Positions 12,923 through 22,131 of a stretch of DNA of 64,000 nt are shown here, in pieces (within the stretch, counting starts at the first letter, position 1; the number at the start of each line of letters is the position of its first letter). The translations under genes were made by a program, and so were the position numbers. The stretch is from Escherichia virus TH54, in sequence record MT446420.1; one strand, given 5' to 3'. A model generated the notes under the pieces. The model was given only the letters and a program-made list of their open reading frames with translations. It made no database searches and was not told where the DNA came from.

Positions 12923-13506
12923 TTACGGCATTCCTCAATAAAAGAGTTCAATGTATTTTTCTTGGCGATATCGTCGTATACCTTTTTAACTTTAGAAATA
13001 CGAAAAGGTACTTCAATAACCATAGTCCATAAAAGTGATGCAATAAGTCCAACAGCAGCAGAAGAAATGCACGCGCCCATTACAGCTACAGGTGCTTCAT
13101 TTTTACCTGTCAGGAAAAACCACAGGATTGGTAAAAATAAGATTCCAGCCCATGCATAAAACCTGGAACAAATTAACTTATCAAATTCATCTTTCCAGGT
13201 ACGAAATCCATATTTCTTGCTATAAGAAATTAATGGGTCTGGTGTCTGTTCTTTGAGTGGTTCTGGTTGATGCCCATTAATGATGTATCCCATTTTATAT
13301 TCCTTAATTAAAAGCTCTTTCATATGACGATTGCATCGCGACCAATCAACATTTTCAACCTTGATTCCTTCATCACCATCATCAAGGTTCGCCCAATATT
13401 TTTTGGCAATCATAAATTCGTCTCTTGATACAATTATACCTGTATTTTCTGGGCGACGGATGAAGTTTACATCAACACCCATACACCCAGGTTCATAAAG
13501 GGCCAT
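12919..13506 (-). CDS. membrane protein, 2 TM helices
   Basis: 195 aa; hydrophobic segments AWAGILFLPILWFFL and VMGACISSAAVGLIASLLW; C-terminal FIEECRK shared with paralogs. Confidence 0.45.
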   Translation of the reverse strand: MALYEPGCMGVDVNFIRRPENTGIIVSRDEFMIAKKYWANLDDGDEGIKVENVDWSRCNRHMKELLIKEYKMGYIINGHQPEPLKEQTPDPLISYSKKYGFRTWKDEFDKLICSRFYAWAGILFLPILWFFLTGKNEAPVAVMGACISSAAVGLIASLLWTMVIEVPFRISKVKKVYDDIAKKNTLNSFIEECRK

Positions 13507-14195
13507 TACCAGCCCTCCATGGGGAATTCCAGATATACTTGAGCATTAACGCGGATTTCATTGGTAACTTTATTAACACGGTCAGTTTTACGAGATACGC
13601 GACCAAACCAGCGCCAACCGTTACTAACTGTTTTTGTTCCAGTATGCCAGGTCTGCCAGTTGAATTCACATAATGTGCGGTCAGGAGCTTCTTGAACTAA
13701 AAGTTCACCCGCCTTGATTTTTTCCAGAACTTCCTGGTGCCACTGGCGATAGATAAGTTCGCCATCAGGAATCTGACTGAATTCTGCAGTTCCAAGAGCA
13801 AAATTAGTAGGGCAAACAGAAGCGTTAACCAGACCCAGGATGTGTTCAGAATGGTAACGAGGGTTATCATAATCAGGTTGTCCTGCTGTAATAAAATGTT
13901 GTCCTGCTGGAATATCTGGTCGCGGTACGTCATCATGGTGATATCCAGGGATAGCAGGATACCAACCAGGCATTAACATGTGTACACGGGAATCAAATAC
14001 AATATCAGGGCCACATTGCCAATCTTCAGGCAGGTTTTCAATAAAGCTACGAGTAATAGGACCGCCATGCTTATGCGCAAATTCTGGATAGCAGTTAAAG
14101 AACATGGGCTCATTTTTAATCATATCATTACTGATATCTTGAGCAAATTGACCAACTTCACGCATTTGACTATTAAAAGTTTTTGGACTGTTCAT
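13506..14195 (-). CDS. hypothetical protein with His/Asp-rich motifs
   Basis: 229 aa; GYHHDDVP and RYHSEH motifs; preceded by promoter/stem-loop. Confidence 0.45.
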   Translation of the reverse strand: MNSPKTFNSQMREVGQFAQDISNDMIKNEPMFFNCYPEFAHKHGGPITRSFIENLPEDWQCGPDIVFDSRVHMLMPGWYPAIPGYHHDDVPRPDIPAGQHFITAGQPDYDNPRYHSEHILGLVNASVCPTNFALGTAEFSQIPDGELIYRQWHQEVLEKIKAGELLVQEAPDRTLCEFNWQTWHTGTKTVSNGWRWFGRVSRKTDRVNKVTNEIRVNAQVYLEFPMEGW

Positions 14196-14254: not shown

Positions 14255-15214
14255 TTATTTTTCGAAAGGACGAATTAAATGTTGGTTAGCCTTAAAGCGT
14301 TTAACATAGTCTTCATGACCCAGTGTGTTATACATATTAACCACGTCCTGATAATGTTCCCAGGCATACTCACGGAACCATCCAGAAGTAATGGAGGTGC
14401 AGACTTTTTCCAGCGCAATATGGAAGCTCATGGATGGAGAGATATTGAACTCATTAGGAACCTGCGAACGTTCCAGAGCGAGCACACATGCTTCTTCATA
14501 AACCCCTGCCAGTTTAATAACATCAGGCAGTGCTTCAAATTTTTCACGTGAGGTCATGACTTCTGAATCATCCTTCATATAGAACTTATATGCAGGCTTA
14601 TCAGCAAGCGCCACAGCCTCGTGGATGGAGTCATGGTCAAGGGTATAGATTGTATCATTAAAGAAAGTTTTCTTGCCCACATCTAGTTTAGGGTGACTGT
14701 ATGACAGTGTTTCTGCCTGACGCTGCAGCATGATTTTCTGCAGTTCATCATTAAGAACAACACCCTTATTGCGAAGATAATTAATATGACTCATGGTCTT
14801 CAGGAAGAATGGGTTGTTCTTCAGGTAACGATGAGACAATTTAATCGCCAGACAAATATCAGGAGTCGCCCAATAGAAACCTGTAAGACGGTCTTTCTTA
14901 ATATGATTTTCAGCGTATTTCAAGAGACGATAACTTGAGGTGAAATCTTCGTCTTGAAGCTCACCAGTAATTTCTCGTACGTTAGTCAGGGCACGGACAA
15001 TATAAGCTTCAAAATAGGTTTCTTTGCCATTGTACATACATTTAAAAGCTTGGACATCAGGGTTATCCACAGGAACATGAGCACCGAACATACGTGCTTT
15101 AAAGTGGTTCCAAGAACCCTGGTCAGCGATAAAGTCCCAATCAGAGTTTTCAATTTTCTGACTTTCAATCAGACCAGCGTTATGTAATGCACGAGAACCA
15201 ATAACTAACATCAT
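14255..15214 (-). CDS. hypothetical protein
   Basis: 319 aa from MMLVIGSRALHNAG; GS...SDWDF spacing loosely nucleotidyltransferase-like; GAGGAAA SD. Confidence 0.45.
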   Translation of the reverse strand: MMLVIGSRALHNAGLIESQKIENSDWDFIADQGSWNHFKARMFGAHVPVDNPDVQAFKCMYNGKETYFEAYIVRALTNVREITGELQDEDFTSSYRLLKYAENHIKKDRLTGFYWATPDICLAIKLSHRYLKNNPFFLKTMSHINYLRNKGVVLNDELQKIMLQRQAETLSYSHPKLDVGKKTFFNDTIYTLDHDSIHEAVALADKPAYKFYMKDDSEVMTSREKFEALPDVIKLAGVYEEACVLALERSQVPNEFNISPSMSFHIALEKVCTSITSGWFREYAWEHYQDVVNMYNTLGHEDYVKRFKANQHLIRPFEK

Positions 15215-15233
15215 AATATTTTCCTCAGTAAAC

Positions 15234-15473
15234 TTAAATTTCAGCAACGTAATCGTTATGCAATTCCCACATATCATCAGAATTATTCTTAATGATAGGA
15301 ATTATCTCATTAGAGATTTCTTCTGCATAAGGGTCATTGATACAGTGAGCATCTTCAAAACGAACACCATAATCAGACTTCTTATAAGAGAAGCCATAAA
15401 TCTTTTTAAACTTGGCACGAGTAATGCGTACCGGTTCATTAGACTTATCGGACATCGGAGCGTAATACCACAT
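15234..15473 (-). CDS. hypothetical small protein
   Basis: 79-aa ORF. Confidence 0.4.
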   Translation of the reverse strand: MWYYAPMSDKSNEPVRITRAKFKKIYGFSYKKSDYGVRFEDAHCINDPYAEEISNEIIPIIKNNSDDMWELHNDYVAEI

Positions 15474-15585
15474 ATATTCTCCTCATATTGTGTAAAGTAA
15501 TAGTATCGCAGTTTTTTGGAGTTGTATACTGCTTCTGCAATATTCTAAAAATAATTTATCCTCCTATCACATCCTTGTGATAATT

Positions 15586-15819
15586 TTAGCAGCTACTCGG
15601 ATACCAGATTTTACCATCGGCACGAGCAACGAAGGTACGACCAGCTTCTTCACCATAACAAGAGCTGTTCAACCAGTCTTCAAGACGGACTTCGCCGTCA
15701 TAATCATCAAGCTCAACACCAAAATCTTGAGCAGAAGCCATATCTTTTACTTTCTTATACAGTGCAGCCAGTTCAAGGGCAGCTTTTTCTAATTCAGCAT
15801 GTTCAACAGCAGTAGTCAT
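15586..15819 (-). CDS. small protein of C-terminal W-x-SS-C family
   Basis: 77 aa from MTTAVEHAELEK, ends WYPSSC; SD lies in upstream gene's last codons. Confidence 0.45.
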   Translation of the reverse strand: MTTAVEHAELEKAALELAALYKKVKDMASAQDFGVELDDYDGEVRLEDWLNSSCYGEEAGRTFVARADGKIWYPSSC

Positions 15820-15829
15820 TTTTATTTCC

Positions 15830-16057
15830 TTAGCAAGACATAGAGGAGTTAAACCAGAAACCTTTACCATCTGGGATACCATAATCACCGCGAATCCAGT
15901 CATACTCTTCGTATTCTGGACAACCCGCAGGAATATATCGTTGAAGACTGTCAGCATACACATGAAAGTATTCACCAGTTTTATCGGCCAGTTGTTCACC
16001 TTCACAGATTAGTGCACGGATTTGGTCTTCAATTTCTTTAACAGTTTTAGCAGTCAT
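15830..16057 (-). CDS. small protein of C-terminal W-x-SS-C family
   Basis: 75 aa, ends FWFNSSMSC. Confidence 0.45.
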   Translation of the reverse strand: MTAKTVKEIEDQIRALICEGEQLADKTGEYFHVYADSLQRYIPAGCPEYEEYDWIRGDYGIPDGKGFWFNSSMSC

Positions 16058-16066
16058 TTTATTTCC

Positions 16067-16264
16067 TTAGCATTCGTAAGAGGAGGACACCCAGGAGCCA
16101 CCCGTAATTGTAATACAGCCATTGTAAATCGTGATATGACGGTCCAGATGGTTTTCACCTTCGATATAGATGTCGGCTTCTTCACGTTCTTCTTTACAAA
16201 TCTGGATAACGTTTTCAATAGCTGCCGCGGCAGTACGGATTGCACAATCTAATTCACGAGACAT
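16067..16264 (-). CDS. small protein of C-terminal W-x-SS-C family
   Basis: 65 aa, ends GGSWVSSSYEC. Confidence 0.45.
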   Translation of the reverse strand: MSRELDCAIRTAAAAIENVIQICKEEREEADIYIEGENHLDRHITIYNGCITITGGSWVSSSYEC

Positions 16265-16273
16265 AATAATTCC

Positions 16274-16555
16274 TTAACATTCAACAGAAGAGGACACCCA
16301 ACCACCATTTTCCAGGTCAGTTGTATAGTCATGAGTATTAACAATAGCCCATTCAGGATGACCATGTTCTTCCCAATGAGCAAGGTCGGCTTTCAAGGCG
16401 CCAGGAGAATAATAGTCACCGCCCATACCGCGAGCAGGGTATATATTAAAATGAGTCTCATATTTGTCTGCAATTTCCTCGGCACGACGAATAGCTTTAT
16501 GGATATCATTTACTGCGGCCAGAAGCTCTGGTTGGTTATGGTTATCATTCATCAT
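16274..16555 (-). CDS. small protein of C-terminal W-x-SS-C family
   Basis: 93 aa from MMNDNHNQ, ends NGGWVSSSVEC. Confidence 0.45.
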   Translation of the reverse strand: MMNDNHNQPELLAAVNDIHKAIRRAEEIADKYETHFNIYPARGMGGDYYSPGALKADLAHWEEHGHPEWAIVNTHDYTTDLENGGWVSSSVEC

Positions 16556-16556
16556 A

Positions 16557-16847
16557 TTAGCACACCTCAGAAGAGGAAACCCAGGCACCAACAGTAACAA
16601 TGCCGTTTTCAACTTGCCCGCCGTTGTTTTCAATATGGTGGGCGAACCATTCGGAACATTCATAACCGACTGGGTGATATGTACGGCCGGTGCCGTAATC
16701 GCCAGTGCTGAATTCGATACCATATTCATCTGCGATTTCTTCACAGTGTTTTTCAATTTCAGAGGTCTTATTTAGAAGAGAATAGATAGCTTTTTCTGCA
16801 GATTTCTCATCATAATACTTGGGGATAGCAATTTCAATTTTATTCAT
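16557..16847 (-). CDS. small protein of C-terminal W-x-SS-C family
   Basis: 96 aa, ends GAWVSSSEVC. Confidence 0.45.
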   Translation of the reverse strand: MNKIEIAIPKYYDEKSAEKAIYSLLNKTSEIEKHCEEIADEYGIEFSTGDYGTGRTYHPVGYECSEWFAHHIENNGGQVENGIVTVGAWVSSSEVC

Positions 16848-17197
16848 GATTTACATTCCTTAATAAAGGTTTCAAGGTCATTACGTTTTGTTTTGTCTAG
16901 AAACTTATTATACTCAGCCATTGCCGAAGCATATCTCTTACGACTAGGAGCATTCACGGCGTTTGTGTGACAAATATCATACACAACCGGGATAAAATAA
17001 GCCACAATAGCCGGAGCGATTATCATAAAGAAACCCATCTCAATAGGCATGACTCCCTCGATTGCAGCCATAACCGTGGTCATTACCAGACCAACCAAAC
17101 CACCAAGCATGGCGGTGACAATCCCTAATAATAAATTGCCACCAATATCATATTCAGCCAATTGATAAACATGTGAGGCAAGACTAGGCCGTTCCAT
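16844..17197 (-). CDS. membrane protein, 2 TM helices
   Basis: 117 aa from MERPSLAS; AAGGAGG SD; C-terminus TFIKECKS. Confidence 0.45.
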   Translation of the reverse strand: MERPSLASHVYQLAEYDIGGNLLLGIVTAMLGGLVGLVMTTVMAAIEGVMPIEMGFFMIIAPAIVAYFIPVVYDICHTNAVNAPSRKRYASAMAEYNKFLDKTKRNDLETFIKECKS

Positions 17198-17543
17198 TAC
17201 GAACCTCCTTAATAAATTCTTCGGCACATTTAATTTTGTGCTCTTCTTGTAGGGAAACACATTTTTGTTCCCACGCTTTAACTCGCCCGCGATAACCTTT
17301 ATTCATATGATTTTGATGCCACACGTTTATCAATAACATGCTCAGGACTGTAATAAAAGGTGCTGCAATTACTAGCGTCCAGGCGACTCCAACACTAATG
17401 ATATTCATATCTCCACAAAGCACCATCATTATAACCCCAACGATGCACATGGACAGAGCTCCAAATGGAGGCATAAGGTCTTTATCAATCTTGTCTGCGT
17501 ATACAAATTTTTCTGGTTTACTTGGCAGATATAACGTTCGCAT
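17184..17543 (-). CDS. membrane protein, 2 TM helices
   Basis: 119 aa from MRTLYLPSKPEK; AAGAGG SD; C-terminus EEFIKEVRNGTA. Confidence 0.45.
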   Translation of the reverse strand: MRTLYLPSKPEKFVYADKIDKDLMPPFGALSMCIVGVIMMVLCGDMNIISVGVAWTLVIAAPFITVLSMLLINVWHQNHMNKGYRGRVKAWEQKCVSLQEEHKIKCAEEFIKEVRNGTA

Positions 17544-18075
17544 TTTGAACCTCTTTAGCATATTCACGACATTCAGCAATAAAACGATTAAGCTTACGTT
17601 TCCGTTTACGACATTCTAATGTGTACTCAGCCGCCAAATCAAAAAGCTCATCTTTATCATAATTTTTAATATCAGTATAAGTTGGGCGGCGGTCAACCAT
17701 TCCAAAGTGGTCACCATTTTCCAACATCAAATAACACACCAAATGGTCATCATCGTCCGCATTAATAAGCTGCTTATAATCACTTGGTTCATTTAACGCA
17801 TACACAGAATAACTCAGTCCAGCGAATTCCACTCGTTGAATACCCAGATTTACATCAATAATTTCCAAGGCATCTGCGAAAGAAAGGTCTTCAGCTAAAG
17901 CAAAAATAAAAGGCAATTTGGTAGTATCACCGCGACTTGTTGTTCTTCTTAAGAAATCATTGGAATAGCCCAGGTCACCACGGATTCTATAAAGAACTGT
18001 ATTAGTTTCAGTGGCAAGACCGCTACCACCAAACCAGTCTACATTTGATATAAGGTCAGTGTATAAGCTCATAAT
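17518..18075 (-). CDS. hypothetical protein
   Basis: 185 aa from MSLYTDLISN; GGAGG SD. Confidence 0.45.
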   Translation of the reverse strand: MMSLYTDLISNVDWFGGSGLATETNTVLYRIRGDLGYSNDFLRRTTSRGDTTKLPFIFALAEDLSFADALEIIDVNLGIQRVEFAGLSYSVYALNEPSDYKQLINADDDDHLVCYLMLENGDHFGMVDRRPTYTDIKNYDKDELFDLAAEYTLECRKRKRKLNRFIAECREYAKEVQNANVISAK

Positions 18076-21978: not shown

Positions 21979-22055
21979 TGGTCGGGGTGGTGGGATTCTA
22001 ACCCACAACCTACGGTTTAGAAGACCGTTGCTCTATACAATTGAGCTACACCCCG
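21979..22055 (-). tRNA. tRNA-Arg (anticodon UCU)
   Basis: hand-folded cloverleaf: acceptor CGGGGTG/CACCCCG, D arm GCTC/GAGC, anticodon loop CTTCTAA, T arm GTGGG/CCCAC, 3' ACCA; ends +/- 2 nt. Confidence 0.8.
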
Positions 22056-22057
22056 GG

Positions 22058-22131
22058 TGGCCCCATCCGGACTTGAACCGGAAACCTGCCAGTTATGAGC
22101 CGGATGCTCTAACCAATTGAGCTACAGGGCC
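22058..22131 (-). tRNA. tRNA with CAU anticodon, probably tRNA-Ile (AUA-decoding) rather than Met
   Basis: acceptor GGCCCTG/TGGGGCC with two G-U pairs, anticodon loop CTCATAA, T arm TCCGG/CCGGA; no encoded CCA. Confidence 0.7.

Follow-up and report, generated by a model that had tools for sequence, protein, structure and literature searches.

Several described systems join a nucleotidyltransferase, or another modifying enzyme, to a small protein. Nucleotidyltransferase-fold toxins with small partners exist, among them MenT/AbiEii and HEPN-MNT; in HEPN-MNT, a type VII toxin–antitoxin (TA) system, a minimal nucleotidyltransferase AMPylates the co-transcribed small protein encoded next to it, and in the GlnD/PII pair the substrate of the enzyme, which both adds and removes uridylyl groups, is likewise a small protein. 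Proteins that must end at one particular residue are represented by ubiquitin and its E1 enzymes, in which adenylation of the C-terminal carboxylate precedes transfer to a catalytic Cys, and tandem small genes beside one modifying enzyme by the ribosomally synthesized and post-translationally modified peptides (RiPPs). Here we describe a locus of Escherichia virus TH54 (64,000 nucleotides of sequence record MT446420.1, the whole stretch being called the window below), in which five tandem genes for small proteins with a common tail ending in Cys lie upstream of a gene for a DUF7277-DUF7275 protein. The obligate context of this downstream gene, which the initial annotation of the locus did not see, is what is new here.

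The initial annotation described five tandem open reading frames (ORFs) of 65–96 amino acids (aa) at window positions 15586–16847. All are present at these coordinates, on the minus strand, with the C-terminal ends it reported.

16557–16847, minus strand: paralogue A, 96 aa, net charge −10, ends GAWVSSSEVC; PHROG 899, E = 1.3e-21.
16274–16555, minus strand: paralogue B, 93 aa from MMNDNH, ends GGWVSSSVEC; PHROG 899, E = 1e-18.
16067–16264, minus strand: paralogue C, 65 aa, ends GGSWVSSSYEC; PHROG 4882, E = 3e-36; family hidden Markov model (HMM), E = 3e-15.
15830–16057, minus strand: paralogue D, 75 aa, ends FWFNSSMSC; PHROG 899, E = 3.5e-15; family HMM, E = 8e-31.
15586–15819, minus strand: paralogue E, 77 aa, ends WYPSSC; PHROG 899, E = 8.6e-10.
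16560–16583 (A), 16277–16300 (B), 16070–16093 (C), 15833–15856 (D) and 15589–15606 (E), minus strand: tail codons, checked by translation.

The proteins encoded by the five genes are real, are paralogous and belong to a family that is widespread among phages. All five match one family HMM (E = 8e-31 to 5e-13) and cover the C-terminal ~80 of the 221 positions of PHROG 899, a profile of unknown function that paralogue C, the shortest of the five, matches weakly (E = 0.055). The shared fold proposed earlier is therefore expected, as the five are true paralogues, with a confident model for A only. Pairwise identity among them is 25–38%; the W, the S-S and the terminal C are nonetheless invariant. 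The sole Cys of paralogue B is the terminal one, and this protein has the YG-M-GG-x-YY-P type of loop seen in the family; C, D and E have no Gly-rich YG-x-GG loop. Paralogue E is of a ‘two-tail’ type, with an internal WLNSSC-YGEE at 15658–15675 in addition to the terminal WYPSSC; proteins of this double-tail type are also encoded upstream of the enzyme gene in two other loci (L034 and L065). That no known domain could be assigned was borne out: the family has no Pfam, NCBIfam or PDB assignment, and the five proteins scored at noise level when scanned against Pfam, NCBIfam and PADLOC.

When 1.84 billion cluster representatives were searched exhaustively with the family profile, 84 matched, about 65 of them being 70–120-aa proteins of the same plan: an N-terminal helix ending EAExIADxxG, a strand xFxF and often an (A)YG(M/S)GGTYYP loop, after which come a variable acidic segment and the end G-x-W-(V/I)-S-S-S-x-x-C. 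In a further profile search 161 clusters matched, including sequences from Myxococcus phage Mx1, Edwardsiella phage PEi20, Klebsiella phage F48, Yersinia phage fHe-Yen9-01 and contigs of 360–395 kb; the family ranges over T4-type, rV5-type, jumbo and Myxococcus phages, and orthologues of paralogue B were found by tblastn in 329 phage records. Multi-HAMP histidine kinases (P0035–P0038, P0054, P0081) were rejected as homologues: they match only the helix and ‘IADExG’ segment, with up to 10 repeats per protein, and were judged a repeat-amplified chance similarity. In the records MW250787 (UPEC07), MW233709 (UPEC01), MK295203 and OR842557, orthologues of B bear the name ‘tail completion protein’ and one neighbour is called ‘major capsid protein’, names that look like automatic misannotations.

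In an alignment of 141 sequences (numbering of protein A), with a mean column identity of 15%, W89, S92 and C96 are invariant and A39, F46, G54, Y57 and S93 at least 90% conserved; in a smaller alignment of 38 sequences the W, both Ser and the Cys are invariant. The stop falls exactly after the Cys in 138 of the 141 members and W stands at −7 in 135; a minority have a W+5 tail, WxxSSC or WxSSxC. The members carry a net charge of −7.5 on average. Strong constraint at the protein level acts on the tail, which must be a free C-terminus. The initial annotation had proposed a common binding, metal or modification site. An intramolecular metal site is unlikely, because the terminal Cys is the only invariant residue of a metal-ligand type, with no invariant His, Asp, Glu or second Cys across the small proteins and no second Cys at all in 71 of 141 members; the other two options, binding or modification, are favoured by the obligate partner gene described below.

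The window has 1059 stop-to-stop ORFs with a length of 30 aa or more; none but these five matches the family HMM or carries the motif ending, and chance is therefore excluded. A further explanation, named in the initial annotation as the one that would undo its reading, is that the motif is an artefact of conserved intergenic or Shine–Dalgarno (SD) junction DNA in untranslated frames. Stop-to-next-start distances are −4 (e.3-like gene to A), 1, 9, 9 and 10 nt in order, the start of A overlapping the stop of the e.3-like gene (ATGA), and TAAGGA does overlap the stop at three junctions (B to C, C to D and D to E), where final codons plus stop double as the next SD. The earlier statement that this holds in each case was slightly overstated: the A-to-B junction uses GAGG inside the tail codons, and E is followed by a 112-nt spacer.

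Codon use in 111 distinct tails, from the window and the retrieved loci, speaks against such an artefact. Ser(−4) is encoded by TCT 41, TCC 30, TCA 16, AGT 10, AGC 8 and TCG 6 times, Ser(−3) by TCT 45, TCG 21, AGT 15, AGC 14, TCA 11 and TCC 5 times, and the terminal Cys by TGC 71 and TGT 40 times. TCN and AGY codons are two base changes apart, so selection is at the amino-acid level. The SD does not include the Cys codon, and phages whose junctions are quite unlike these keep the motif, among them those of the 29 of 111 tails that have no ATG in the 25 nt downstream. The ratio of nonsynonymous to synonymous substitution rates (dN/dS; Nei–Gojobori, each gene against its orthologues in six related phages) was 0.06–0.15 for A, 0.27–0.51 for B, 0.15–0.33 for C, 0.17–0.39 for D and, in the five comparisons with nonsynonymous differences, 0.13–0.32 for E, whose orthologue in L009 is 100% identical. 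All five genes thus lie at 0.06–0.51, below 1. The codon switching and these ratios therefore exclude the junction-DNA artefact, against which the confident fold prediction also stands, and its probability is practically negligible.

The AlphaFold model of A, built from a deep alignment, has a predicted local distance difference test (pLDDT) score of 92.3, with a helix at residues 14–42, five short strands and a helix at 66–74; a first model from a shallow alignment of 38 sequences was discarded (pLDDT 55). The helix 14–42, together with the low identity among the five proteins, agrees with the helical, divergent N-terminal halves noted earlier. No fold match was found for the A model among solved structures, and the small domain, as modelled, appears to have a fold without a solved relative. 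In PDB, the single sequence and the 141-sequence profile matched nothing but designed helical bundles and AcrIIC4; these matches ran via the N-terminal helix and were judged spurious. The tail block has the lowest pLDDT of the model (79 vs 97); the most conserved part of the protein is yet the least confidently modelled, as would be expected for a partner-binding motif.

Downstream of the five genes in the window lie the following.

15234–15473, minus strand: 79-aa ORF, PHROG 3723, with homologues in 11 of 80 loci, all closely related T4-type.
14255–15214, minus strand: partner gene, 319 aa, DUF7277 + DUF7275 (Pfam E = 1.9e-75 and 4.8e-26), PHROG 2141.

The first four unrelated phages with a family gene followed by DUF7275 were Mx1 and those of three contigs, of 371 kb (a jumbo phage), 395 kb and 122 kb. 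Each encodes a 300–350-aa DUF7277 + DUF7275 protein downstream of the family gene, which abuts the partner in Mx1 and the 122-kb contig (L008) and is separated from it by an ORF of 32 aa in the 395-kb contig (L007) and of 218 aa in the 371-kb contig. The window has the same order, with only the 79-aa ORF between E and the partner. A search of IMG/VR with the enzyme only gave 80 viral loci among the matches listed, 75 further viral stretches lying outside this set. In 71 of the 80 there are 1–6 family HMM matches, every one on the strand of the enzyme and all but 5 upstream of it, with gaps of 0–1621 nt (median 530). The nine loci without an HMM match comprise seven with divergent W..SS..C-ended ORFs upstream and two without upstream DNA, and a tailed gene accompanies the partner in all informative viral loci (78/78). 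Conversely, 27 true loci were found with a DNA pattern for WVSSSxxC-stop, and the partner was present in each of the 17 with enough downstream DNA. Other neighbours in the window are retained only in close T4-type relatives; on this ground e.3, e.4, the 79-aa ORF, a 229-aa ORF and others were rejected as parts of the module, the 79-aa ORF being a lineage-specific passenger. Tailed genes and partner form an obligate, co-oriented gene partnership of 1–6 tandem copies with a single enzyme-like protein of ~300 aa.

This linkage bears on whether the tail could act autonomously, its Cys serving on its own in intermolecular disulfide or metal bridging, redox sensing or the covalent trapping of a host thiol enzyme, next to an unrelated enzyme gene. 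The terminal Cys is indeed the only invariant one, half of the members have no other, and very acidic proteins recall known protein and DNA mimics. Such autonomy would leave unexplained the 78/78 and 17/17 linkage in unrelated lineages of phages, with no other neighbour retained, and the loss of tailed genes where the enzyme has no Cys272 (see below); we consider it improbable.

The conserved landmarks of the partner protein map to the window as follows.

15194–15199, minus strand: G6-S7.
15134–15142, minus strand: D25-x-D27.
14825–14842, minus strand: KLSHRY.
14621–14641, minus strand: DHDSIH.
14468–14479, minus strand: ALER.
14360–14407, minus strand: KVCTSITSGWFREYAW, with Cys272.

The Pfam gathering cut-off is 27 bits for both DUF7277 and DUF7275; window 14255–15277 scores 253 and 92 bits, and both domains are matched by 43 of 43 diverse homologues, which are 37–73% identical to the window protein. 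Among the residues invariant in these 43 are G6, S7, D25, D27, K125, H128, R129, K139, R165, H194, D195, H198, E240, E241, E248, R249, C272, S274, T276, S277, G278, R281 and W285, and Cys272 lies within a near-invariant block of 16 residues. GS at residues 6–7 and DxD at 25–27 are invariant in all 89 homologues inspected; nearly all homologues start with hhhIGSxAL followed, after 13–20 residues, by DhDhh, and the few exceptions resemble miscalled starts. GS...DxD, in the N-terminal domain, looks like the signature of a Pol-beta-type nucleotidyltransferase, and nucleotidyltransferase families of Pfam were matched below threshold (DUF6036, E = 0.013, in 2 members; NTP_transf_5, E = 0.12). The second domain carries an invariant H / HD..H / EE / ER cluster (K-x-S-H, H-D-x-x-H, EE, E-R) that recalls the metal sites of HD-type proteins; as to an HD phosphohydrolase, DUF7275 gave no Pfam HD match even at E = 10 and no PDB match. 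On these sequence features the partner protein looks like an enzyme.

Of 50,697 deposited phage genomes, 731 carry the partner gene, the bearers including T4-type, rV5-type, Otagovirus, jumbo, Acinetobacter, Myxococcus and Bacillus phages. Among records with annotation displayed, one GenBank record calls it ‘putative nucleotidyltransferase’, and elsewhere it is ‘hypothetical’ or has a gp number; the PHROG category of the small proteins and the partner alike is ‘unknown function’. A PADLOC scan of the partner gave chance-level matches only.

The dN/dS of the partner, 0.03–0.11, is several-fold below that of the small genes. Together with the pairing of one enzyme with 1–6 rapidly diverging paralogues, whose tail is constant and whose bodies are 25–38% identical, this difference would suit an arrangement in which the small proteins are interchangeable specificity subunits and not substrates, the tail plugging into the enzyme and each body recruiting a different host protein or nucleic acid that the enzyme modifies. 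A plain hydrophobic anchor would serve that end, and the invariant, reactive Ser, Ser and terminal Cys are left unexplained; we regard such adaptors as unlikely, if worth keeping in mind.

Variation among partner homologues relates the tail to Cys272. The genes concerned, in the coordinates of their loci, include two of Bacillus phage G that are taken up below.

L120, 3663–4454: short partner homologue.
L121, 4004–4750: short partner homologue.
L123, 4602–5363: short partner homologue.
L122, 3106–3459: gp204 of Bacillus phage G, 117 aa, ends EEETSSSW.
L122, 3494–4498: gp205 of Bacillus phage G, enzyme homologue.

The short homologues (248–263 aa), from Gordonia phage Abscondus, Streptomyces phage Circinus and a KVP40-like Vibrio phage, keep GS, DxD, KxSH, HDxxH, EE and ER and have neither the ~60-residue insert nor Cys272 nor the SGWFREYAW block. 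No Cys-tailed ORF was found upstream of them in any of the three lineages. The long form of a Pseudomonas Otagovirus keeps the Cys block, and upstream of it stand two tailed ORFs that are clear (E = 6e-22 and 2e-7) and two weaker candidates. This co-occurrence of tail Cys and Cys272 across the compared sequences is suggestive, not proof.

The short forms also bear on the idea that the small acidic proteins are regulators of an antitoxin-like kind, inhibiting or gating a potentially toxic enzyme by insertion of the tail into its active site. Tight pairing on the same strand with the small gene upstream would fit, as would the nucleotidyltransferase-fold toxins with small partners mentioned above. 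Up to six divergent copies per enzyme would be atypical of antitoxins, however, the short enzymes occur without any partner, and no PADLOC or TA-family match was obtained, which makes gating of this kind decidedly unlikely.

We put the chances about even that the tail is a docking or modification site for the partner enzyme and that each paralogue has its own target by virtue of its variable body. The small protein is a strongly acidic alpha/beta domain with an invariant W-x-(S/A/N/P)-S-S-x-x-Cys tail as its free C-terminus, and its tandem copies are transcribed with, and just upstream of, the single DUF7277-DUF7275 protein. Beside the reality of the genes, the selection on the tail, the breadth of the family, the lack of a solved relative of its fold and the pairing, which are observed, we infer a physical interaction, an enzymatic modification, its chemistry and a biological role, as follows. 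The free C-terminal peptide would dock into the enzyme, where tail Cys and Cys272 would probably cooperate. The enzyme would then modify the tail covalently, the likeliest reactions being nucleotidylylation of one of the tail Ser residues and chemistry that involves the terminal Cys or its carboxylate. The two clusters of conserved residues in the partner would suit a writer/eraser scheme. Through its fast-evolving body each copy would be directed at a target of its own, probably one of the host. That the paralogues are tandem and diverge fast suggests a part in an arms race, and the likely role would be that of early accessory genes for host takeover or counter-defence.

Several observations weigh against this model. 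The assignment of the partner as a nucleotidyltransferase stands on the motif and the sub-threshold Pfam matches; sequence and profile comparisons of the partner with PDB, and a comparison with NCBIfam, gave no match, an hhalign comparison with E. coli GlnD was null, and the third catalytic carboxylate is not invariant, its segment being absent from the short forms. Bacillus phage G has a long, Cys-bearing enzyme, but the acidic protein upstream of it ends in ...TSSSW without Cys; this gp204 may be a tail variant or an unrelated protein. The Cys-to-Cys correlation comprises only three partner-less lineages. Because tail length varies (W+7 and W+5 classes), there is no single fixed Ser-to-Cys spacing. 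As to biological role, the five proteins gave no PADLOC matches and the enzyme only chance-level ones.

A more specific version of tail modification by the partner is possible, though we hold it only tentatively and with the chances against it. The module may be an undescribed tail modification or conjugation system of large lytic phages, in which a nucleotidyltransferase-like enzyme with a catalytic Cys activates the Ser-Ser-x-x-Cys C-terminus, thereby arming or addressing diversifying effectors against host targets. The chemistry could be an E1/ubiquitin-like activation of the carboxylate with thiol transfer, or a nucleotidylylation-driven elimination at Ser with closure of a thioether ring.

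Ring closure at the tail would also be the outcome if the ~80-aa body were a RiPP leader and the 6–8-residue tail its core, cyclised, for example by a Ser-to-Cys thioether, and perhaps released. Tandem paralogous precursors with one modifying enzyme and a Ser/Cys-rich end would agree with this, and S-x-x-C-COOH is the classical spacing of aminovinyl-cysteine (AviCys). G precedes the tail frequently (of 135 members, 95 have it at −8 and 71 at −9), often giving a G-G, and the enzyme weakly matches NTP_transf_5, a family of lasso-peptide clusters. The supposed leader is, however, well folded (pLDDT 92), a constant core behind a variable leader is the reverse of RiPP families, and the S-x-x-C spacing does not hold in W+5 tails. 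In the examined loci, genes for LanB/C/M/D, radical-SAM or YcaO enzymes, a protease or an exporter were not noted. A RiPP-like pathway is, on balance, very improbable.

The region of the window that contains the module is 84–97.5% identical to T4-like coliphages of the VR7/SP18/JS98 type (Gaprivervirus/Dhakavirus), phage TH57 being the top match. The counterparts of the five ORFs, VR7ORF138c–142c and SP18 gp137–141, are labelled hypothetical only. In VR7 and SP18 the array lies between accessory genes on the e.2 side and homologues of the e.3/e.4 membrane proteins on the other; the SP18 and VR7 records list e.4 and e.2 as predicted membrane proteins. In T4, where e.2 abuts e.3, neither tailed proteins nor partner enzyme were found in the 12 kb from vs.7 to gene 3, which span e to the tRNA genes. 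Further features of the window around the module are listed here.

16844–17579, minus strand: genes of e.3- and e.4-like proteins (PHROG 2330 and 2604), upstream of the array.
15565–15582, minus strand: hairpin TATCAC-aaggat-GTGATA, 6 bp, two bases past the stop of E, followed by GGAGGATAA.
13506–14195, minus strand: ORF of 229 aa, downstream of the enzyme; PHROG 1843 (function unknown), without a Pfam match.
21979–22131: tRNA-Arg and tRNA-Met, about 5 kb from the module.

The hairpin is too weak and AT-rich for a terminator call, and a scan for promoters and terminators gave counts no higher than the shuffled expectation. The e.3-like gene accompanies the module only in the closest relatives (8/80 loci), and the 229-aa ORF, for which the VR7 record notes similarity to ORF78 of Pseudomonas phage D3, is retained only in T4-type relatives (20/80). 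RNA-repair or tRNA genes lie within 1–8 kb of the module in L003/L004/L005, L007, L121 and L122, recurrent ones being Rnl1, PNKP, RNA ligases, polynucleotide kinase, a poly(A)-polymerase-like gene and tRNA clusters; this proximity may be the usual clustering of early accessory genes. The 371-kb jumbo contig also has a Gad2-family gene (PF26128; L003, 105–1220) ~7 kb upstream of the module.

A strictly C-terminal Ser/Cys tail with a dedicated enzyme offers a compact and directly testable hypothesis of new post-translational chemistry in phage infection. Even if the chemistry should be ordinary nucleotidylylation, the analysis supplies a working hypothesis for PHROG 899/4882 and DUF7277/DUF7275 and corrects the ‘tail completion protein’ misannotation. 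Many partner-bearing phages are therapy candidates, and both components carry uninformative or apparently wrong names in the displayed annotation.

A literature search returned nothing relevant on either family, and the comparison with known systems runs over the following kinds. The partner resembles GlnD in combining what looks like a Pol-beta-type motif with a His/Asp-rich second domain, and here as there the substrate would be a small protein of the same system; as to an identity of the small proteins with PII, a ferredoxin-like trimer with a Tyr in its T-loop, they gave no Pfam P-II match and no sequence or fold match in PDB. HEPN-MNT is similar in its co-transcribed small protein and differs in its Rx4-6H motif and four-helix HEPN fold: the small proteins described here have no such motif, Arg and His not being among their invariant or near-invariant columns, no HEPN-like fold match and an alpha/beta fold, and their enzyme of ~300 aa has an extra conserved domain, 1–6 partners, a lytic phage as its bearer and no PADLOC match. 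Ubiquitin and E1 share with the module a small protein that must end at one residue and a partner in which what looks like a nucleotidyl-transfer signature occurs along with an invariant Cys, but here the fold is not a beta-grasp, the end is Cys instead of Gly-Gly, and the partner gave no ThiF/E1 Pfam match. RiPP families with multiple precursors, such as the prochlorosins or those with AviCys ends, are alike in their tandem small genes, Ser/Cys end, Gly-Gly and one adjacent enzyme; here the body is folded and variable and the ‘core’ constant, and no RiPP enzyme, protease or transporter was noted in loci with precomputed Pfam lists or among the scanned neighbours in the window. The acidic mimics Ocr, ArdA and Arn are likewise small and strongly acidic, and the array sits, as they do, in a variable accessory region, here one that T4 does not have at this site; these mimics show no sequence or fold similarity to the family and act alone, without a dedicated enzyme or a Cys tail. 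We rate the module as outside the known kinds, its closest analogies being conceptual; if nucleotidylylation is confirmed, it would be a variant of enzyme–substrate nucleotidylylation pairs.

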